A stretch of 64,000 nucleotides of DNA from Raja brachyura (taxonomy: Eukaryota). The DNA is taken from positions 11,904,001 through 11,968,000 of the forward strand of contig OY740821.1 of assembly GCA_963514005.1 (NCBI GenBank), written 5' to 3'. The notes below the pieces were generated by a model. The model did no database searches and was not told where the DNA came from. It worked only from the letters and a program-made list of their open reading frames with translations. Position numbers and translations under genes: made by a program. Positions 8,320-53,465 of the stretch are shown here, piece after piece (the first letter of the stretch is position 1; every line of letters starts with the position of its first letter).

Positions 8320-9490
8320 GAGTCAAGAATGTTTTATTGTCGTATGAAATGAAATTCTTACTTGCTGCAGCACAACAGAATATGTGAATATGTAAACATA
8401 GTACATAACGGGAGAAGAGAAAAAAAGAAAAAGTTCAATAAATGACATATAGTGCAAATAACAAATAATAATATAGTCTTTTGCAGTTCAGAGTTCAGAG
8501 CTTATTCATTGTTTAATAGCCTGATGGCTGTAGGGAAGAAGCTGTTCCTGAACCTGGACATTACAGTTTTCAGGCTCCTGTACCTTCTTCCTGATGGCAA
8601 TGGTGAGATGAGTGTGTGGTCAGGATGGTGTGGGTACTTGATGATTTTGGCTGCCTTATTGAGGCAGCGACTACGATAGATCCCTTCGATGGTGGGGAGG
8701 TCAAAGCTGGTGATGGACTGGGCAGTGATCACAACTTTTTGTAGTCTTTTTCGCTCCTGAACGTTCAAGTTGCCGAACCAGGCCGTGATGCAACTAGTCA
8801 GTATGCTCTCCACCGTGCACCTGTAGAAGTTTAGGAGAATCCTCTTTGACATGCCGAATCTCCGTAATCTTCTCAGGAAGTAGAGGCGCTGATGTGCCTT
8901 CTTTATAATTGCATCGGTGTGCTGGGTCCAGGAAAGATCTTCGGAAATATGCATGCCCAGGAATTTGAGGTTATTGACCCTCTCCACCATCGTCCCACTG
9001 ATATGAACAGGATTGTGGGTCCTCATCCTTCCCTAACCAAAGTCCACAATCAGCTCCTTGGTCTTACAGATGTTGAGAGCCAGGTTGTGCTGGCACCATT
9101 GGGTCAGTCGATCGATCTCACTTCTATACTCTGACACGTCCCCATCTGTGGTTCGTACAACCACAGTGGTGTCGTAGACTAACTTGATGATGGAGTTTGC
9201 ATTATGTCCGGCCACGCAGTGATGGGTATAGAGCGAGTAAAGCAGGGGGCTGAGCACGCAGCCTTGCTCCCGTACTAATTGTTACTGAAGATGAAGTGGT
9301 TCCTCCAATTTGAACAGACTGTGGTCTGTGGATGAGGAAGTCGAGGATCCAATTGCAGAGGGATGCGCAGAGGCCCAGTTCCGTGAGCTTGGTAACCAGC
9401 TTGGAAGGGATGATGGTAGTAAACGCCTAGCTGTAGTCTATAAACAACAGCCTGACGTGGGTGTTTTATTGTCCAAGTGGTCCAGTGCGT
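8320..9490 (-). mobile_element. 5'-truncated Rex1/Babar-type LINE (decayed RT C-terminus)
   Basis: Broken ORFs [31 protein letters not shown] and RLYFLRRLRRFG..FYRCTVESILT..LPSGRRYRS..RFRNSFFPTAIRLLN. Confidence 0.9.
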
Positions 9491-9865
9491 AGTGGAGTCC
9501 AAAAACAATAGGAAAGAACAAGAGCATAATAATACTCCAATTATAAAGGGGAGAGAGAGAGAGAACCTCAAACTTTTTTTGTTTGAACCTGAAGCAGTAA
9601 ATTCTATACAAACTTTTCCTATTTGTAACTCCCCAAGAGTTGATTTGCAGTTTGTGGTGAATTGTTTTAAAACGTTACCGTAAGGGTCAGTGACCGCTTA
9701 CAGGAAATGAGACCCAGCAGGTTTTATTATCTGGCAGGCTGTGATCCCAGAAAGGACTGAGACATGGGGCACTGTGCAGTCCCAATGTGATTTATATTTG
9801 CCATCTCGTAACTTGCATTGTGTTCTTGAGTCTTGGTTTACTGTAACAGAGAATGCTTATTTACG

Positions 9866-11308
9866 AGGATATTTACGAGGATCTTCAACCTGTCTCTATC
9901 TCTGGCAACGGTCCCCAAGTGCCTGAAGACAGCTACCATAGTGCCGGTGCCGAAAAAGTGTAAAGTCACCAACCTGAATGACTACCGCCCGGTTGCCCTA
10001 ACTCCAATACCAATGAAGTGCTTTGAAAGGCTGGTCCTCTCCCACATCAAATCCAGCATCCCTGCATCATTGGACTCTCATCAATTTGCATACAGGGCAA
10101 ATAGATCCACAGAGGATGCCATCTCTGTGGCTCTTCACACTGTCCTGACCCACCTGGAAAGACAGGGCACCTATGTGAGGATGCTCTTCATTGAATATAG
10201 CTCTGCCTTCAATACGGTCATCCCACCAAGCTCACCACCAAACTCCACCAGCTAGGCCTCAGCTCACTGATATGCAATTGGATCCTGAATTTTCTGACGG
10301 AGCGACCGCAGGCAGTGAGACTGGGGCCGCACCTGTCCTCCACTATCACCCTGAGCACCGGCACACCACAGGGCTGTGTACTGAGCCCCATGCTCTACTC
10401 CCTCTTCACCCACGACTGTGTCCCTACATTTGACAACAACACCATTGTCAAGTTTGCAGACGACACAACGGTGATCGGGCTGATCACCAACGGTGATGAA
10501 ACAAACTATAGAGCGGAGGTGCAGAACCTGGCGGACTGGTGCTCACGGACCAACTTGTCGCTAAACGCCTCCAAGACTAAGGCGTTGATTATCGACTTCA
10601 GGAGGTCACAGAATGGGGAATACGCCCCAATCTCCATCTACGGAGCCAGTGTGGAGAGAGTGTCCAGCTTCAAGTTTCTGGACACTCACATCTCAGTGGA
10701 CCTCACATGGTCGACCAACACTGCTGCGCTGGTCAAAAAGGCACAGCACTTCCTAAGAACATTGAAACGGACTGGTGTGCCCCAACAGCTGCTGACGACC
10801 TTCTACCGCTGCACCACAGAGAGCATACTAACGTATGGCATCTCTGTGTGGTATCTCAGCTGCACGGAGAAGAGAGCTCTTCAGCGCGTTGTCCACAGAG
10901 CGCAACAGATTATTGGGACACGCTACCAGCCTTAGAGGGCACCTACTGCACATGGTGCCTTAGGAAGGCCGTCAGCATACGTAAAGACTCCTCTCACCCT
11001 TGTAATGGACTGTTCGAACTACTCCCTTCCGGCAGACGTTACAAGGCCTTCTACGCCCGCACTACCAGACTCAGGAACAGCTTCATTCCCAGAGCTATAG
11101 CGGCTCTGAACCGGCCCTGCTGAGTACCCCCACCCCCATGGACTGTCTCCCCCGGCCTCGCACTTTAGTCTGTGTTGATGTTACTGGTCAAATGTTCGTT
11201 TTTACAAACCTTGTTCTCGGGGGTTGCAAACCAAAATCTCGAAGTTGCAAACCAAATCTCGTTGCACTTATGTGTAATGACATTAAAATATTATTATTAT
11301 TATTATTA
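9866..11308 (+). mobile_element. 5'-truncated Rex1/Babar-type LINE with (TTA)n tail
   Basis: [58 protein letters not shown] across frameshifted ORFs; ends in (tta)n near 11290-11308. Confidence 0.92.
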
Positions 11309-13010: not shown

Positions 13011-13148
13011 GGAAGAAGAAGCAGAAAAAGGGAAAGACTTTGACCCTGACCGACTTTCTGGCAGAGGATGGCGGAGGGAATACCCCAGTCTACATTCCCT
13101 CGAAGCCAGTCAGCTGGGCAGATGAGACCGATGACATGGATAATGAAG
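13011..13148 (+). CDS. EIF4B: EIF4B coding exon 2 (138 nt; exon 1 not found in window)
   Basis: ttctag|GG...GAAG|gtaag; translates (G)KKKQKKGKTLTLTDFLAEDGGGNTPVYIPSKPVSWADETDDMDNE, matching the vertebrate eIF4B N-terminus (KKKNKKGKTISLTDFLAEDGG...KPVSWADETDD, from recall). Confidence 0.97.
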
Positions 13149-13580: not shown

Positions 13581-14179
13581 TATTGTAAACAGTCCCCACT
13601 GCTCACAGGTTGCCAATCTAAAAATGACCACCTTAACACAACGTGCTGCTGCTTGCTCATTAGTCAATCCTCTGTTTAACTTCTGCCTCCATAGGCTCTG
13701 GTGATGTAACATTTCACACGATACCTTGTCAAATATCCAAACACAAAGCATCTGTCTACTCTTGTCGACTCCCTGGGAAAAAAAAATCTGATAAATTAGT
13801 CGGACTCTGTTTCCCATTCATGGAGCTGTGCTGACTTTGTCTGATTAGTTTATGATCATTCAATTGTTTTACATTTAATTGATAATTGATTTAAATATTT
13901 TTCCAAGATGCAAGGCCAATCGGCCTACGTTTTTGTCTTGGTTTTTTTGAACAATGTCACATTATCATTTTTTTTCCATCCTCTGGCGCCTAAGGTTTTT
14001 TGCAACATTTTTACCAATGCTTCCGCTATCTCAGAAGCCGCTTCTTTTAGGATCTGAGGATGCCAGCTATCCGGGCCAGAAGACATCAGCATTTAGCCCA
14101 TTAGTTTGCCTGGCACCTAGTCTCTAATGATGGTATTTAATTCCTCCAGCTTTATTTAGTATTAATGGGAAGTTCATAG

Positions 14180-14314
14180 CTTCTTCTTGCTTATGGCGTG
14201 CACAGCCTAAAGTTGTAGGACGACTTGTTCTATTTGATCTTATTTGATTGTGCACGCCAGGTTCGCATTCGTCGAAACGGGGCAGACCACATGAAGGTTG
14301 CAATCTTCCACCCC
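14180..14314 (-). mobile_element. 135-bp non-autonomous retroposon with 12-bp TSD
   Basis: GGAAGTTCATAG at 14168-14179 and 14315-14326; the minus strand ends in AAGAAGAAG; 10-bp stem GGCGTGCACA/TGTGCACGCC (14195-14204 and 14249-14258). Confidence 0.85.
14261..14314 (-). ncRNA. HDV/CPEB3-like self-cleaving ribozyme motif (slightly decayed)
   Basis: Minus strand GGGGUGG-AA-GAUUGCA-ACC-UUCAUGU-GGU-CUGCCCC-G-UUUCGA-CGAA-UGCGAAC maps onto P1, P2, P3/L3, P1', P1.1, minimal P4, J4/2 (catalytic C) and P2'. Confidence 0.75.
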
Positions 14315-17300
14315 GGAAGTTCATAGTATCCCCTACCATTTTAAAATTGGTGCAAAGTATCCAAAAAAACTCCTCGATTGTTTGTTCCAGGAAACTCTTT
14401 CCCCACCCGTTCTCTGAGGAGAGAAATGTTTATGTACATTTCTGTCTTCCTTTATGTACTGAAAACATATTGTCTTTTTTTAAAAAAATAATCTTTACTC
14501 GTTTGTCCTCAATTTATTTTCCTTTTTTGGTCTTCCTTTGCTGGATCCAGAATTCAGTCTTAACGTCTACCGTTACCTTTTTGTTTTATCTCTTTTATTT
14601 TGATGCCCTGTCACTTCCTTGGTTAGCCATGGTTGCTGCATTGCTACCTTGGAAGCTTGCCTTTTTACTGGGATATTTTTTTGCTGGCTGTCAGGAGTGA
14701 CCTCACAATGTCTGCCACTGCATGCCTCTATTTAGCCAACCCCATCCTAATAACTCTCTAATTCCTTTCATAAGTTAACCTCAGTTGCTTCTTGCCCAAG
14801 TCTCTTTCCCCCACCCCGGTATGGAATACAACATCCATCATATTGTGATTACTACTTTCTTGGGTGATCTTGTAATCCTGAGATTCATTTAACCTGCATC
14901 ATTATGCTTTGCCAGATTCAGGAGAGCCTGTTTCCCCAGTTGGTTCTGTAACATATTGATCTAGGAAACAATCTTGCATGCATTCTGAATTCTCATAGTT
15001 ACAGTTTCCAAATTAATTAACCTAATCAGCAGGAAGATTAAAGTCTTCCATAATTATTTCCTATTTCTTTTGTACTTTTTCTTTCAATTGGCTACTGTTT
15101 GCGAATCTATGCACTGCTAATTTGTTGTTTCTAACCTTCAAAATGGACTCCTGAGCCTAGATTGTCTCTCACATCTCTACTCATTTTATCACTTATTAAC
15201 AGCGCTCCCCCACCACTTGCATTGATGACTGTGTTACAGAGGAAGCGGTGGAAGGATTAACTATCTACATCTCAGCATTTGGGATGCTCCACGGTGATTC
15301 CGTCTGCATCTCCAACTCTGACATGCTTAACCAGTAGCAGCAGCCGGCTGCACTTTATTCACATGTGGTTCCCATGGACCTCGAAGAGTCCCCTTCCATC
15401 GGTCTAAGTTCACCTGCCATGAATTACACTCCAAATTAAGCTCCTTGGTTCCTCCCCTTAAAAAAAACTAATTGAACTGGGGACCTTGTTTCACTCCAAA
15501 CACTACTTGGTATGATGTAAAGCCTTTGTACACTTCATTAGCTTACATGCAAGTGGCAAGTTACTATGTTTCATCCATTTTGCACGTTCATATCTGCAAT
15601 TTCTTTCTAATTAGGTGGCACCTAACTGGAGCAATTGCAACAAGGGTCCCATTTCGTAAACTGATTTTGGTGTTTACTGGGTTTGCAGGCAATCCAGGAA
15701 AAACTGTCTGAGCGGTAAACACGGGCAGATGGTCCGAGAACTCCCAGACGTTAATGCATATTCCATCAGTCTGGTTCATTGTTAATTAACTCTGCTGTTC
15801 TGTCAAATACCTTGACAGAGGGGAGCAAAGCACCCAGGCAAATTCCTTGTATGTATACATTCTTGGCTAATAAAATGTATTCAATTCACCCCATAAATGG
15901 CAGGTCCATTATTCCAGATGACTGCCAGAGCTGGTCAAGAGTTGTGCAGTCAGTGATGTGCACGTGGGTTTTGCGTGTTCTGTCGTTGGATTAATTTGGA
16001 GGCTGTAAAATGGAGCTCAGCCAACTGACAGAAGTATAGCATGTAATAGGTTGTGATTGTTTGAGAAACCTTTAGGTGCTTCTCTGAGCTGGAATATACG
16101 TCTTAGAAGCAGGTGTCGGTTCCTTAGCCCCTCATGTCTCCTCTGGCATTTAGGAAGTTAATTCCACATCATTTACCTCAGCATCACGTTCCTACACCAA
16201 CCACATATCCTTAAATTTCCATTGTGTCCAAATATCTATTGCTTTTGCTTTGAATATATGCAGCAGCTGAGTCTCCACGGACCTCTTGGGTAGAGAATTT
16301 CAACGTTTCACCATCTTCTGGGGTGAAGAAATTTATTCTCATCTCTGTCCTTAATGGACTATGCAGCTAGGGGAAGCATCACTCCTGCACTTGCCCAGCC
16401 AAGCTGCAGAAGAATTTGGCACATTTTGAGGAAATCACCCCTCATTGTACGTAACTCCAGAGCATCGGACGAGTCTGCATAATGCTCCAGTAAGACGGTT
16501 GTTTCCCTGTTGCAGGAATCTGTCTGGTGAATGGAATAAGCTACCATTTTGCCCGTTTAAATATCTAATTAATTTGTGAATAAAGGAATAACAATTTGCA
16601 AATTGCCAATTGCTTATTGCAAGTTTGTTGCAGGAAAACCATGCAAATTGGCTGCTGTCGGAGCACTGTGATGAAACAATTCAGGAGTCTATGCTGCACT
16701 TTGTCACAAATGACCATTGTTTCATATTGCTAAATTGAGTATCAGCAAAGCAAGCTGATACTCGCGTAGCAACTCCAAAGCAAAAAGAAAGGTCAGCAAG
16801 TCTTTTGTGCACGTGCATGGAAGGTGTGGTGAACATCATCCCACCAAAGAGTTAGAGAAGGTGAAATAAATGGCACCAATTATTTTGTTTCTGCAACTTC
16901 TTCCTCCGTGAGAAGTCATGGGCACATTGTCTATGCTTTCCTTGCATAGTAACCTAATGTCAGTTTGCCCACAAATACTGAGCAGACTCCCCACTTCTGG
17001 TTGGCAAAGACAGCATGGAGAATCTACTGATGTAGTTTGTGCATTAACCAGGTTTATGCATTCTTTAGCACTAGAGAGACCTGGATGTATCTACTATTTT
17101 ATTTTTGGAAGTGTTGAAACTAGAGACATTTTCTAATCTGATTTGCTTGTGGTTGTGCACGTTGATAATTGAAACATATTTGAACATAATTGGGTTCAGA
17201 TAATTCCCTTGCTTGGCATTAGTCTGAAGCAATTTGAAAAATGGTGCTTTCAAAAGTTGCGTGGACTCGTTCACCTGGAGAGCAATAATCACGCCCTGTT

Positions 17301-17363: not shown

Positions 17364-18925
17364 CAGTGCTTTCAGAAAGTATTCCCACCCCTTCGCTATA
17401 TCCACATTCCAGCCTTATTCTAAAATTGATTAAATTCTTTTTTTTTGCATCATTCTACACACAATACCCCATCATAAAAATGTTTGCAAAGTAATTTAAA
17501 AGAAATTACTGAAATATCACATTTACATAAGTATTCAGACCCTTTACTCAATACTTTGTTGAGGCACCTTTGGCAGCGATTACAGCCTCAAGTCTTGTGT
17601 ATGACTCTACAAGCTCGGCACACCTGTATTTGGGTAATTTCTCCCATTCTTCTCTGCAGATCCTCTCAAGCTCTGTCAAGTTGGATGGGGTGCGTCGATG
17701 CACAGCTATTTTCAGGCCCCTCCCTCCAGAGATGTTAGATCGGGTTCAAGTCCTGGCTCTGGCTGGGCCACTCAAGGACATTCGCAGACTTGTCACAAAG
17801 CCACTTCTGCATTGCCTTGGCTGTGTGCTTAGGGTTGTTGTCCTGTTGGAAGGTGAACCTCTGCCCCAGTCTGATGTCCAGAACGCTCTGGAGCAAGTTC
17901 TTATCGAGGATCTCTCTGTACATTGCTCCGTTCATCTTTCCCTCGATCCTGACTAGTCTCCCAGTTCTTGCCGCTGAAAAACATCCCCACAGCATGATGC
18001 TGTCACCACCATGCTTCACCGTAGTTATGGTATTGGCCAGGTGATGAGCGGTGCCTGGTTTCCTCCAGATGTGACGCTTGGAATTCAGGTCAAAGAGTTC
18101 AATCTTGGTTTCATCAGACCAGAGAATCTTGTTTCTCATGGTCTGAGAGTCTGTTAGGTACCTTTTGGCAAACTCCAAGCGGGTTGTCATGTGCCTTTTA
18201 CTGAGGAGTGGCTTCCATCTGGCCACTCTATCATAAAGGCCTGATTGATGGAATGCTGCAGATATAGTTGTCCTTCTGGAAGGTTCTCCACAGAGGAACT
18301 TTGGAGCTCTGTCAGAGTGACCATCGGGTTCTTGGTCACCTCCCTGACCAAGGCGCTTCTCCCCCGATTGCTCAGTTTGGCCAAGCAGCCAGCTCTATGA
18401 AGAGTCCTGGTGGTTCCAAAGTTCTTCCATTTAAGAGTGACGGAGACCACTGTGCTCTTCGGGACCTGCAATGCTGCAGAAACTGTTTTATACCCTTCCC
18501 CAGATCTGTGTCTCGACACAATCTTGTCTCGGAGGTCTACGAACAATTCCTTTGTCTTCATGGCTTGGTTTTTGCTCTGACATGCACTGTCAACTGTGGG
18601 GCCTTATATAGACAGTTGTGTGCCTTTCCAAATCATGTTCAATCAATTTAATTTACCACTGGTGGACTCCAATCAAGTTGTAGAAACATCGCATGGATAA
18701 TCAATGGAAACAGGATGAACCTAAGCTCAATTTTGAGTGTCAATTATTTATTTTTAATTACCTTGCAAAAATTTCTAAACGCCTGTTTTCACTTCTTCAT
18801 TCGGTGTTATTGTGTGTGGATTGATGATTTAAAAATAAAAGAATTTCATCCATTTTAAAATAAGGTTGTAACATAACAAAATATGGAAAAACGTGAGGGG
18901 GTCTGAATACTTTCTGAATGCACTG
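17364..18925 (-). mobile_element. Near full-length decayed Tc1-family (DD34E) DNA transposon
   Basis: TIRs start CAGTGCTTTCAGAAAGTATTC and end GAATACTTTCTGAATGCACTG; transposase [25 protein letters not shown]; frameshift, and the catalytic Glu codon reads TAA; TA TSDs eroded. Confidence 0.95.
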
Positions 18926-39470: not shown

Positions 39471-39906
39471 TCACTATTGCTGCTGCTTAATTTCTATAGT
39501 GTCCTTACTTTCGACTTGTATAAGTTTAGTGACTCAAATTGGTGGTGTTTATACGTATATTAAAATTGAAGGTTTCTACAGATTAAAGTGAGAGAATCTG
39601 GTTTCTTGTGTCTGAACAGTCAACTATCATAAGGCACAGATTTAAGATATTGATATAGTACTGAATTCTGTTCAGTGGGTGGGAATGCTGGGATGTGGAA
39701 TTCTCTGCTCAATTAAATTTTATTGGACATTCTTGGCAATAAAAATTTTAAACTAACAATGTTGGCTATAATTAGTTTTGGTTTATTATTCATGTGTACC
39801 AAGATACAGTTGAAAAATCTGTTTTGCATACTCAGCAATTCCTACCAGGCCTGAGTACAAGTGGCGCAAAAGAGAAAATAAACCATGCAGAATATAGTGT
39901 TAGTTA

Positions 39907-42353
39907 AAGTGATTCATAAATTAATACACCCCGATAAAACTAGCTTTATTCCAAAATGTTATTCATATTATAATCTGAGACGATTATTTAACATTATATA
40001 CTCAAATCGAATAGCTAATGTAGATTTAGCAGTCATTTCGCTAGATGCTGAGAAAGCATTCGATCAAGTTGAATGGCCCTATTTATTTTCGGTGATGGAA
40101 AAATTTCAATTAGGTGAGATGTTTTGGTCTTGGGTTAAGCTTCTATATACCAACCCAACAGCCAGAATGATGACAAATCAAATGTTATCAAAAAAATTTG
40201 ATTTATCTAAAGGTTGTAGACAAGGATGCCCGCCTACCCCATTACTATTCGCCCTTGCTATTGAACCACTAGCAGAAAGAGTTCGAGCACAATCCAGAAA
40301 TATATGGGTATAACACTAAAAATACAGTTAATAACATTTCTCTATATGCAGATGATTATATATTACTATATATTACAAATCCAGAAATTAGCATCTCTAA
40401 CCTGTTAAATCTTATAACTCAATTTGGTTTATTCTCGGGATACAGAATCAATTGGAATAAGAGTGTGATTATGCCAATAATGGAACCTAATTTATATATA
40501 TTGCAACAATCACCTTTTAAAATAGTGAATGAAAAATTAAAATACTTAGGAATTTATGTGACCAAGAAATATACTACTTTATTTAAATAAAATTTCGTAC
40601 CTTTACTTAATAAATTGCATAAGAATATTCAATATTGGAAAACACTCCCATTTTAATGCTCGGTAAAATTAATGCTATTAAAATGATTTTCCTTTCTCAA
40701 CTTCTATACCTCTTTCAATCAATTCCGATATATCTCCCTAAAGATTTATTTAAAAAAGTCGACTCTATTGTAACAAGTTTTATTTGGGATTATAAGAATC
40801 ACAGAATAAGTAAAAAACACTTATGTAAACCCAAGACGAATGGAGGATTAGTCTTACCAAATTTCTTATTTTATTTCTGGGCAGTCAATGTCAAAAACTT
40901 AAATTTCTGGTTGGAAGATATGGATCAACAACCAGACTGGTTAAAAATGGAAAAGGAGGATTGTCTGCCATTTGAAATTGGCCCGATTCTGTTAACTCCT
41001 ACAAAATTGAATGAAAAAATCTATAGTGAAAATCCAATAATACATAGTGGTATTCGAATTTGGAAACAAATAAAAAATACATTAAAATTGGATAATATAT
41101 CACTTTCGCTCCCTATTGTAAATAACCCTTCATTTAAGCCTTCAGTATTGGATAAAGGTTTTGCCCAATGGAAAAATTATGGAATTAAAAAGATGGGACA
41201 TCTTTATAGAAAAGGCGTGTTCCTCTCGTTTCAGGAGGTACAACAGAATTATGGATTACATTCAAATAACTTTTTTGGATATTTACAACTGAAAGATTAT
41301 GTTAAATCACTTACACAAGAATACAGAACTAGAGAGCCAGAGATTCTAGATGAATGTTTGAATAAACACCCCAATAGTCAAATTAATACTGTACATTTAT
41401 AATATTATTTTAGATAGTGAGAATCCATTGACGGAATTACATAGACAAGCATGGGGAAAATGAATTGGTTCAACCCATAACAAAAGATATTTGGGATGAA
41501 AGTCTACAACATATACATCAATGTTCGTTAAACGGCAGACATTCTTTAATACAATTTAAAATATTACATAGATTGCATTATTCTAAAACAAATTAAATAG
41601 AATTTTTCCTAATATTTCTCCTATCTGCGATGTCAATATTCTGAGGCTAATTTAACCCATACCTTTGTAAGTTGCATAAAAATTAAAACATTTTGGGTGG
41701 ATATTTTTTTAATTATTTCCGTAGTGGTTAATACTCAACTGGATCCCGATCCTAAATTAATAATATTGTGCATATCTGAACAATACCTAAAACTTACAAT
41801 AAACCAAAGAAATTTCCTTGATTATAGTATAATAACTGGGAAAAAATTAAAATTAAAATTTTGGAAAAACCCTGTATCCCGCACAATCAAAATGTGGATT
41901 ATGGAGATGTCGGAGACCTTAAATCTGGAAAAAATTAGACTTGTCTTAATTGATAAACCAGAATTATTTACTAGAATATGGTCTCCGTTCATAGATTATT
42001 TGAAGGGGTAGAATGGGCCGTCACTGAGAACTGACGGAAGCTTGAACCCAGGACTAGATGAATAGTTATGTTTTCTTACCTACGGACCTATTTCCTAAGT
42101 TGTATTATGGATAGTTTATTCTATTTTTCTAATTTTCTTTTCTTTTTCTTTTTTTTTCTATCTATTAAAAATAATAATAATAATAATTAGTCAATGTTAA
42201 TATGTAACCGATAAATGAAGACCCCAGCTACATTGGTAGTGGAGTCCCTGGAATCCTGGATATTTAATATGTAACCGTTTAGCAAAGTTTGTAGTGGTTC
42301 AGACTATGATATGTACATGCCTCTAATAAAAGTTAACTTAAAAAAGAAAAAAA
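39907..42353 (+). mobile_element. 5'-truncated L1-clade LINE (ORF2 RT and C-terminus) with A-rich tail and 18-bp TSD
   Basis: ISLDAEKAFDQVEW..GCRQGCP..LLFALAIEPLA..SLYADD..GGLVLPN; AATAAA then an A-rich tail; AGAATATAGTGTTAGTTA (39889-39906) vs AGAATGTAGTGTTAGTTA (42354-42371). Confidence 0.92.
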
Positions 42354-52100: not shown

Positions 52101-52990
52101 TGAGGGAAACATCTTACCAGAGCTATCTTGGTAAGATGTTTGTACCATTTATCCCAGTAAAGCCCTATTCATTTCCAAATGATTTTAACAATAAGTTTAA
52201 TTATAAATATTTTTTCCAATGTGCTCTCGCTCCTTTTCCATCAGTAGTTTTGGAAGACGCCTCTTCCGCAGCAGGGTGCATGCAGAAACTATTGTCTGAT
52301 ATGCATTAACATTTTCCCCATGACTTCCACCTTGGAGCAGAAGCTACCTTTTACATATTACCAAAAGTTGGATTTACATACCAATAGATACAGCCCCTTT
52401 GTTCCAGGAAAAATCCCATCTTTTTATTTTCCCAATTGTAGGATCTGATCTATAAGGGAACAATCTGCCCTTGTGACAACTCATTCAAGTGGTCATGGTT
52501 CCTGTTAATAATTGATGTTATTCAGTTGAGAGGCATCACTGTCAAACCCGATCCTGTATTCATTTTGGTGAGGCAGCAAAACGGAGCAAATGGGAGATGT
52601 GATTTATCAGGTCCCATTCAGTAGTATGCCAAGGGCTCGTTGGGGAAGATAGTTTTTAATACATTGAATGGCTTTGAGTCTTTTCTTCCCAACCCTACAT
52701 TTATTGGAGAAATGGAGTTGTCACTCTTTAGAGGATGACATGTGCTGCAAAGGTTCTGGGTTGTGCACAGGATCAGCTTGGGTTAGAGTTGTTCCCAGTT
52801 GGTTTGTTGACTAGGTCAGACACGGAACATGGGTCACTTCAATTCAGTGGGTTAGTGCCAGTGAAACAGTTGTTGGGCAAGAGTTGGGAGAGAAAGGGAG
52901 CAAGTCTGGGGAAATAGAACTTTGTTGTAACATAATCTGATTGTATCCCAGTTCGCATGGCCTGTTATTATCTGTATTTGTTGTGTGCAG

Positions 52991-53465
52991 GTACGAGAAC
53001 AAGTTTGTGAAGTTTTTCAAAAGCAAACCAGACCTGCCGCCAGGCCTTAACGCAGATGAATCCGACAAAAGCAAGCAGCAACAGTCCAAGCAGGACGGAG
53101 AGCTAGCTGGGTTGTCCAAGTCAGCTAAACGCAACCTCAAGCGCAAAGAGAAGCGCAAACAGCAGCAGGAATGTGACGGCACCGCCGAGGCCGATGAGCT
53201 GAGCCAAACATTGCAGAAAACCACCATTGCTGGTGGCAGTGGCAATCCAAGCCCGCTGGCGGCTGCTGCACTGCAGGGGGACCACGAGGGAGCAGAGAAG
53301 GCAAAAAAGGTAAAAAATCTCAAAAAAAAGCTGCGCCAAATCGATGAACTACAGCAAAAGCTAGACTCTGGTGAGATTAAGCAGGCAACCAAGGAGCAGC
53401 TGGAAAAGCTGAGCCGCCGAAAACAGCTGATGGAGGAGCTGGAGGATTTGGAACTGGGTTTATAG
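52991..53465 (+). CDS. PYM1: PYM1 exon 3 (C-terminal coiled-coil/ribosome-binding region)
   Basis: gtgcag|G TAC; [19 protein letters not shown]...[15 protein letters not shown]...[16 protein letters not shown]...[10 protein letters not shown]. Confidence 0.97.

Follow-up and report, generated by a model that had tools for sequence, protein, structure and literature searches.

The window, by which we mean the whole 64,000-nucleotide stretch of DNA that was analysed, contains on its plus strand exons near 13046–13115 and 20281 that we take, from their motifs, to be of EIF4B type. Because these exons lie on either side of it, the element described here, which reads on the minus strand, is intronic and antisense to that gene, as had been proposed. 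It is a 135-bp insert between two exact copies of a 12-bp target-site duplication (TSD), GGAAGTTCATAG, which cannot be lengthened; checking the sequence thus confirmed the TSD-flanked insertion on which the original prediction was built. The parts of the element are collected in Table 1.

Table 1. Coordinates of the TSD-flanked element and its parts within the window.
Feature	Positions	Strand	Basis and remarks
TSD copy, 3′ side of element	14168..14179	.	Sequence; TSD mode of family 11–12 bp, 57/72 copies
TSD copy adjoining G1	14315..14326	.	Sequence; exact contact with G1 in 48/57 family TSDs
Complete non-autonomous element of the CGAA subfamily, 135 bp (138 bp in the family)	14180..14314	-	Sequence
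Minimal P4-less HDV-like ribozyme fold, degenerate copy; predicted cut 5′ of G1 = 14314, predicted catalytic C = 14271	14261..14314	-	Putative activity
Part matching LINE 5′ ends	14241..14314	-	83–91% identity, 16/20 fetched loci; in the LINE, the APE start comes next
Linker, ~22 nt, in part a tandem duplication	14219..14240	-	Sequence
Part common with LINE 3′ end (last codons, stop, 3′ UTR, AAG tail)	14180..14218	-	87–97% identity over 32–40 nt, 29/30 LINE 3′ loci
10-bp stem, 5′ arm, from LINE 5′ UTR	14249..14258	-	Folding and family alignment
10-bp stem, 3′ arm, from LINE 3′ UTR	14195..14204	-	As for the 5′ arm
(AAG)n tail	14180..14188	-	Sequence

The family tail has 16,792 matches in the genome, which puts the family at about 16,000 copies or more. 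When copies were selected by this tail, 24 of 30 started within 5 nt of G1, the first nucleotide of the predicted cleavage product, and 20 started exactly there. TSDs were recognised in 57 of 72 copies and touched G1 in 48, compared with 10 of 354 in a mismatched-flank control. Two expectations were thereby borne out: that the insert belongs to a multi-copy family with a common 5′ end and variable TSDs, and that the predicted product begins at the element boundary. Dispersal, TSDs and a LINE-type tail are what characterise SIDE-type elements. Copies of the short element and of its partner LINE show similar divergence, and the family appears old. In an element of 138 nt, an internal promoter would also be expected to give a uniform 5′ end.

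On the minus strand, the head of the window copy pairs as P1 (14314–14308 with 14285–14279) and P2 (14305–14299 with 14267–14261), and it also shows P3, L3, a G for P1.1 (14278), the C at 14271 and a J4/2 of CGAA. The HDV fold originally proposed stood in all of these parts; its supposed miniature P4, U-UUCG-A, is better read as the absence of P4, because a sister short family has UUCCA at that place. We infer catalysis for this P4-less HDV-like fold; P4-less HDV-like ribozymes and an Ingi-clade head cut in vitro, according to the cited passages (PMC10879173, PMC6326823, PMC3185411). An HDV descriptor identified exactly one site on the two strands of the 64-kb window, which was the element itself. 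A stricter descriptor matched 70 times in 2.57 Mb of fetched loci, which are enriched for these elements, and not once when the same loci were read backwards. The published descriptor of HDV-like ribozymes (PMC6326823) specifies a G1–Y pair, conserved U, C and G in L3, and a catalytic C first in J4/2. The family majority has all of these residues (G1 paired in 68/72 copies, U20 in 72/72, C24 in 59/72, G25 in 69/72 and C44 in 67/72), together with a G1·U pair, the L3 sequence UUCACGU and a perfect 7-bp P2. Relative to this majority, the window copy differs in L3 by a C-to-U change of the CpG type, just as had been surmised from its UUCAUGU loop, so that it lacks C24, and it carries a 3-nt deletion that spoils P2. 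Its minimum free energy (MFE) fold is a rival hairpin, in which the 5′ strand of P2 pairs with the 3′ strand of P3/P1. The window copy is degenerate and probably impaired as a predicted ribozyme, and the core is intact in only 27 of 72 family copies. The Rfam HDV/CPEB3-type models, originally suggested as a check, did not recognise the element; a scan of the element and its LINE returned no match to any Rfam ribozyme model, and the gathering cut-off of RF00622 (35 bits) was not reached by the window element or by the intact natural copies L004 and L248.

Support for the fold comes from comparison between lineages. When six lineages are aligned, pairing holds in 177 of 180 cells, and both sides have changed in 12 of 18 pairs, including all seven of P2; nine of the ten rows were chosen by our own pairing scan, and the shuffles ignore relatedness. 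G1–G4, the U, C, G and U of L3, the G of P1.1 and the C, A and A of J4/2 are invariant. Within the family, change is one-sided only, and no two-sided covariation was seen. Differences in the head between subfamilies, or between LINE and short element, either preserve pairing (G-C/G·U, U-A/U·G, G·U/G-C) or sit in J1/2 or at a free position of J4/2. Matches of an Rfam model that is blind to the P2 pairs nonetheless have a complementary P2, and two families in this genome combine a shortened linker with an intact core. The covarying P1, P2 and P3 that the original prediction called for were therefore found at the level of lineages. With the caveat on the choice of rows, covariation supports a nested double pseudoknot (P1, P2, P3, P1.1), as in HDV-like ribozymes, and by this measure shows the HDV-like fold of the head to be real.

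The first ~77 nt and the last 39 nt of the element are common to a LINE of ~3.1 kb with one ORF, encoding APE, RT and CCHC and without a match to RNase H; in an Ingi-type control, an RNase H-like domain was detected, weakly. A compact single ORF with APE and RT and no RNase H is the architecture described for the Vingi clade in part of a review (PMC13708176). The LINE protein has a 1019-aa homologue with 75% identity. Its RT is sister to Ingi and stands apart from RTE and from an RNase-H-bearing Ingi-type element (local support 0.97) in a rough FastTree of 320 RT columns with one RTE outgroup. Published Vingi 5′ ends match the heads of LINEs from the partner's RT group, which links it indirectly to Vingi. 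We call the LINE Vingi-type, a label derived from its architecture, the rough tree and the published 5′ ends of other Vingi families. Inspection of 20 of the 39 5′ loci revealed no intact LINE ORF; 9 of 20 loci were inverted copies of the twin-priming type, which end at or within the head with no upstream flank. No Vingi relatives were found among viral contigs.

The element has no ORF, and its 5′ and 3′ ends come from one autonomous LINE, the composition of bipartite non-autonomous (SIDE-type) elements. Because a Vingi-type LINE has both of its ends, the element is, judged by its sequence, a bipartite non-autonomous LINE like the trypanosome NARTc/RIME. The predicted ribozyme head is, by the same alignments, the LINE's own 5′ UTR and no invention of the short element. 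The 10-bp stem noticed at the outset is likewise real, and joins LINE 5′-UTR sequence to LINE 3′-end sequence. Local alignments with four LINE copies yielded no convincing source for the linker.

These data make it likely, in our judgement, that the element arose from a Vingi-type LINE by internal deletion, is headed by a ribozyme and is mobilised by the LINE. It would consist of the 5′ 77 nt and the 3′ 39 nt of that LINE joined by a short linker, as the alignments show, and its first 54 nt would be the LINE's P4-less HDV-like ribozyme, with a fold based on covariation and a predicted catalytic activity. In master copies, the predicted ribozyme would cut just 5′ of G1 and so release RNA of unit length out of a longer one, most likely a host read-through transcript. 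The LINE protein would then bind the 3′ end of this RNA, possibly at the stem between the two retained ends, and target-primed reverse transcription would insert it, leaving the 11–12-bp TSDs observed. Shared ends and similar divergence suggest that the partner protein acts in trans. Since the whole ribozyme would stay on the 3′ product of the cut, every full-length copy would inherit it.

One possible alternative, to which we give appreciably less credence, leaves the LINE origin unchanged but makes the head dual, like Pr77/L1TcRz: the first ~77 nt would also be an internal pol II promoter, the element would drive its own transcription, and the ribozyme would do no more than trim or protect the 5′ end. 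Sections of PMC3383444 and PMC4035085 describe the initial 77 nt of both L1Tc and NARTc, in the Ingi clade, as promoter and ribozyme at once; for this reason, the description of the family as promoterless calls for caution. The stretch common to LINE and short element here has the same length of ~77 nt, which exceeds what the fold requires by 23 nt, and Kojima, in the portion cited, expects bipartite LINEs to be transcribed by pol II (PMC5786205). However, the passages cited document Pr77 activity in trypanosomes only, and the end-to-end stem, through its 5′ arm, also accounts for the extra 23 nt.

It is unlikely that the fold is real but, lacking P4, a poor catalyst that is retained as a 5′ structure for protection or protein binding, with the uniform 5′ end set by transcription start or RT run-off. 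The rival MFE hairpin of the window head would fit such a role, as would the cap-like protection afforded by the R2 ribozyme fold according to part of a review (PMC13708176). Yet the catalytic C, the two A residues of J4/2, the U and G of L3 and G1 are invariant over six lineages in which the helices vary, the element boundary lies exactly at the predicted cut site, and the shortened linker occurs with an intact core in two families of the genome.

Of the LINE dependence first proposed, the dependence itself stood, with the Vingi-type LINE matching both element ends, whereas its suggested RTE clade fell; that the element is an RTE-dependent SINE is highly improbable. A candidate RTE partner, reached via DUF6451, does have an (AAG)n end as well as an HDV-like 5′ end of its own, in which the P2–P3–L3 stretch is similar. 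We rejected it because only the AAG run and the similar core are common to both: in the 50 loci checked of 150 scored, all of one family, no 3′ sequence is shared past the AAG run, as it would be had the 3′ end come from an RTE LINE, and the RTE head is set apart by its P1, by a P1.1 in reversed orientation and by its long P4. No better are the prospects of a pol III SINE with an HDV fold by chance, since the element contains no tRNA, no A box within two mismatches and no small-RNA-derived head with A and B boxes as in tRNA/5S/7SL SINEs, its head being a LINE 5′ UTR with cross-family covariation; only a presumed B-box-like 10-mer with one mismatch (element positions 37–46) speaks for it, and qualifies the original statement that pol III boxes are missing.

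The fold of the Vingi-type head also bears on the mammalian CPEB3 ribozyme. In this genome, 32 loci score above the Rfam cut-off for that ribozyme (RF00622, 35 bits), and 30 of them, on examination, could be assigned to four more repeat families, of which two are tied to Vingi ORFs and one is a second short ribozyme-headed element. These sister families reach up to 65.8 bits on RF00622, and one matches the P4 stem too. The CPEB3-ribozyme consensus agrees with published Vingi 5′ ends almost letter by letter. From the families tied to Vingi and from these published ends, we conclude that the CPEB3 ribozyme is probably a fossil Vingi 5′ end. A 19-nt CPEB3-type pattern gave four matches in 596 Gb of prokaryote genomes, near the estimated chance level. 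Webb (2009) and Ruminski (2011) reportedly assayed HDV-like ribozymes linked to retrotransposons, including amphioxus and sea-urchin examples, which may be Vingi 5′ ends under other names. The CPEB3 ribozyme has reportedly not been found outside mammals, and its tree was left unrooted for want of outgroups (Bendixsen 2021). A search of titles and abstract openings found neither a description of the element family nor a link between CPEB3 and Vingi. Overall, we lean, by a small margin of belief, towards a joint reading: that Vingi 5′ ends carry a clade-wide, unrecognised HDV-like ribozyme, that P4-less forms of it head two short families with many thousands of copies in this vertebrate, and that the CPEB3 ribozyme was domesticated from the 5′ end of an ancient Vingi element of amniotes or of a Vingi-derived short element, a link that would be new to the literature.

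If this is correct, the family would be a vertebrate counterpart of NARTc/RIME, and a P4-less HDV-like ribozyme would have a biological role outside phages. The origin of the CPEB3 ribozyme would become directly testable, with Vingi 5′ ends as the outgroups that Bendixsen 2021 lacked. According to the cited part of Kojima's study, RTE, Ingi, Vingi and R2 are the only clades yielding bipartite ORF-less LINEs, and NARTc, RIME, the R2 SIDEs and non-autonomous Vingi-1_EE derivatives are known elements of this kind (PMC5786205). The family would bear on the question of why only these clades make such parasites, since here the two retained ends can pair together and bring with them a 5′ end that defines itself. 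Vingi-1 UTRs are used, as excerpts describe, in RNA gene-writing platforms, and a self-cutting 5′ UTR with an end-to-end stem would bear on template design. With thousands of ribozymes that look intact, a measurable shortage of sense-strand copies in introns is also to be expected.

Among known systems, the CPEB3 ribozyme (RF00622) resembles the head in its G-run P1 with G1·U, 2-nt J1/2, L3 of UUCACGU, single C-G P1.1 and CGAA; the window family differs in its helix sequences, absence of P4 and lack of an Rfam match, and the CPEB3 ribozyme exists as one conserved copy in an intron. Minimal HDV-like/theta ribozymes, in the sections cited, also have no P4, a short linker before the catalytic C and ~51–55 nt, but are ~99% confined to phages, many beside tRNAs, whereas here the fold occurs in a vertebrate LINE and two short families (PMC10879173). 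The R2 SIDEs of Eickbush are, in the passages cited, ribozyme-headed, internally deleted and trans-mobilised, but rDNA-specific and low in copy number, in contrast to a dispersed family with an APE-type LINE (PMC6765202). Hedgehog Vingi-1_EE derivatives, as outlined by Kojima (2018, PMC5786205), have Vingi 5′ and 3′ ends joined by internal deletion, like the family described here. NARTc and RIME, the trypanosome partners of L1Tc and ingi with a Pr77/L1TcRz head, likewise keep the first ~77 and last ~30–40 nt of an Ingi-group LINE, with an HDV-like ribozyme, a 1-bp P1.1, a cut at +1 and 11–12-bp TSDs, according to parts of PMC3383444 and PMC3185411. The window family differs from them in its vertebrate host, a partner without RNase H, a length of 138 rather than 263 nt, no P4, a G1·U start, (AAG)n in place of poly(A) and ~16,000 copies or more; its ribozyme activity is predicted and a promoter in its head possible.

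The short element in the window is derived from both ends of one LINE, and its boundary coincides with the predicted cut site of its HDV-like head, with TSDs and a tail present. The original prediction had placed the insert between 12-bp TSDs, which the sequence bore out exactly. Every HDV-fold helix named for this copy could be drawn, and an HDV-fold descriptor matched the element alone on both strands of the 64-kb window; Rfam models, proposed as a check, gave zero matches to it. The copy is intronic and antisense to a gene that we take, from its motifs, to be EIF4B-type. Its putative ribozyme is probably impaired, because the conserved L3 C is gone and P2 carries a 3-nt deletion.

A DNA search with the element returned 1,490 candidates; in all 40 that were scored, the self-match aside, nearly the whole element was covered at 91–93% identity. 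Exact matches to a 28-nt head pattern numbered 6,514; with up to one mismatch allowed, a 23-nt pattern from the tail matched 16,792 times (reversed controls, 0 for each). Among the first 30 tail-selected copies, the 5′ start lay within 5 nt of G1, the first nucleotide of the element, in 24 and exactly at G1 in 20; the other six comprised one LINE, one 5′-truncated copy with a short TSD and four copies adjoining other repeats, two of which were duplicates of one locus. TSDs were present in 57 of 72 full-length copies taken from 250 loci of the same genome, a set skewed by the choice of queries; they measured 11–12 bp in 38 of the 57 and abutted G1 exactly in 48 (mismatched-flank control, 10/354). 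The expected multi-copy family with a shared G1 start was thus found. It comprises two subfamilies distinguished by J4/2, CUAA and CGAA, with 92.8% and 94.8% identity to their own majority letters. Near-full-length pieces in contigs of four organisms, aligned to one copy, indicate that the family is common to related hosts. In one own-genome stretch the head pattern recurs ten times in identical form, always on the same strand and at intervals of 7–36 kb, probably because a segment with a single copy was tandemly repeated.

The family majority head has a P1 with a G1·U pair, a perfect 7-bp P2, an L3 of UUCACGU and a P1.1 of a single C-G pair; the 6 nt between the P1.1 G and the catalytic C form no real P4. 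MFE folding of the window copy's head gave a competing hairpin. Common head variants, and differences between the LINE and the short element, keep pairing or fall in free positions, and the core is intact in 27/72 full-length copies. No two-sided covariation was found within these 72 copies, as expected because copies decay after insertion. The proposed check on P1, P2 and P3 succeeded across lineages: a MAFFT alignment of ten rows from six lineages paired in 177/180 cells (slid controls, 40–50%), with both sides changed in 12 of 18 pairs, including all of P2, although nine of the ten rows had been chosen by a pairing scan, which overstates the case for covariation. A seven-row set was also tested. 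A less biased check comes from matches to RF00622, the Rfam model of the mammalian CPEB3 ribozyme: P2 was complementary in four families, though the model is without P2 pairs. Activity in vitro is known for HDV-like ribozymes that lack P4 (available text of PMC10879173 and PMC6326823), which in the available text of a published survey were nearly confined to phages (PMC10879173). In a metagenome Ingi-type element (2A peptide, PHD, APE, RT, RNase H-like), a minimal HDV-like fold whose linker measures 6 nt lies immediately before the 2A motif.

The LINE dependence guessed in the original prediction is supported by a LINE that shares both ends of the element; the suggestion of an RTE partner is not. 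The one RTE family compared (50 loci) ends in (AAG)n but beyond that run has no 3′ sequence in common with the element. It has an HDV-like 5′ end of its own, with a P1 beginning with C, a long P4 (∼90 nt) and a reversed P1.1 (its G lies in L3 and its C follows P1), and the start point is common to most copies. Beside an RTE tail sits another inserted HDV-like head, whose helices differ. The route to the true partner was a tail-selected locus (L164), a LINE 3′ end coding for a CCHC knuckle; 29 of 30 such 3′ loci matched the element's last 32–40 nt at 87–97%. This LINE opens with the first ∼77 nt of the element; a short UTR and the start of APE come next. The LINE is ∼3.1 kb with a single ORF, and candidates for its 3′ end, middle and 5′ end numbered 661, 94 and 39, respectively; none of 20 5′ loci examined held an intact ORF. 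A 1019-aa homologue (75% identity) contains APE and RT, and a search of it for RNase H gave no match. In a rough RT tree the LINE grouped with RNase-H-less elements (local support 0.97), separate from RTE and from an Ingi-type element that carries 2A, PHD and RNase H-like domains. It matches the description of Vingi (available text of PMC13708176).

We propose that predicted cleavage 5′ of G1 would free a unit-length RNA, whose 3′ end the LINE protein would bind and which would be inserted by TPRT. In 9 of 20 loci the LINE body and its 5′ segment have opposite orientations, as in twin priming. Most inverted pieces end about 240–370 nt into the LINE; the junctions end at or within the head with no upstream flank, which fits an RNA that started at G1. 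The chief alternative is the Pr77 model of Ingi-clade elements, in which the same 77 nt is also an internal promoter (available text of PMC3383444, PMC3185411 and PMC4035085). In the proposed LINE-dependent insertion, the protein may recognize the 10-bp stem, in which LINE 5′-UTR sequence pairs with LINE 3′-end sequence; its duplex energy was better than that of shuffled sequence in two of the three LINE copies compared (5/300, 3/300 and 27/300).

The CPEB3-like loop of the original prediction was also upheld, and is explained by Vingi 5′ ends that match RF00622 (cut-off, 35 bits). A Vingi-type LINE 5′ UTR from a metagenome contig scored 55.6 bits and another 29.8. In the own genome 32 of 58 matches exceeded the cut-off (best, 65.8 bits); 14 control genomes had none above it. 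Thirty loci examined fell into four families: V2 (12), V3 (5), V4 (5) and S2 (8). At least two are tied to Vingi-type ORFs: V2 has one downstream in L339, and an inverted Vingi-type body adjoins V3 in L338 and L348; no ORF link was found for V4 in its five loci. S2, 144–172 bp long (1,113 pattern matches), is another short element with a ribozyme-type head that lacks P4; it ends in an (AAG)n tail between TSDs of 10–12 bp, and has a mostly 6-bp P1 and an end-to-end stem that beat shuffles in three of four copies (0/300, 0/300, 0/300 and 17/300); a search for its partner LINE found none. Kojima's supplement gives the 5′ ends of Vingi-2_Gav, Vingi-4_Crp, Vingi-2_SPur and Vingi-1_BF, and the word "ribozyme" is absent from it. 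Compared by eye with the Rfam consensus, Vingi-2_Gav is identical at 38 of the first 40 positions and throughout the last 14, and alligator SINE2-1_AMi matches the P4 stem. V3 agrees with the CPEB3 consensus even in that stem. The helices could vary freely in sequence, so their identity argues for descent over convergence. The comparison suggests that the CPEB3 ribozyme came from Vingi, the direction being our inference; the human genome holds traces of Vingi (available text of PMC5753468).

Features and loci (L, loci fetched for comparison; G000, own genome; C, its contigs)
Feature	Location	Remark
Element	window 14180-14314 (-)	135 bp
Other LINE fragments (RT-like) and Tc1/mariner-like transposase piece	window 8502-9032, 9830-10935, 17735-18603, 39882-42011	family names assigned by eye from translations
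Exon coding for basic coiled-coil C-terminus	window 52941-53465 (+)	presumably PYM1-like
Head-match array	G000:C1:14.79-14.95 Mb	
CPEB3-type heads above cut-off	L335-L355, L357	G000 C31, C11, C14, C4, C15, others
CPEB3-type heads above cut-off	L276:2188-2271; L295:2737-2820	
S2	L356, L358-L364; also L064, L153	
Inverted partner LINE 5′ regions	L233, L235-L238, L241, L245, L246, L248; also L192, L198, L205, L217	
RTE family	L111-L140	
Head beside RTE tail	L089:779-845 (+)	
Metagenome Ingi-type element	L324:1882 onward	

The concept of a bipartite ribozyme-headed non-autonomous LINE is already known. Our literature search and a 2026 ribozyme survey, in their available text, revealed no Vingi ribozyme, no P4-less ribozyme at the head of a high-copy vertebrate retroposon and no CPEB3–Vingi link; part of this may already be contained in Webb 2009, Ruminski 2011, Kojima 2011 or Repbase/Dfam. 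The element is of the same kind as the bipartite non-autonomous LINEs recorded by Kojima for RTE, Ingi, Vingi and R2 (available text of PMC5786205; reviews PMC6765202 and PMC7761336), and it would work like the trypanosome NARTc/RIME elements and the R2 SIDEs.
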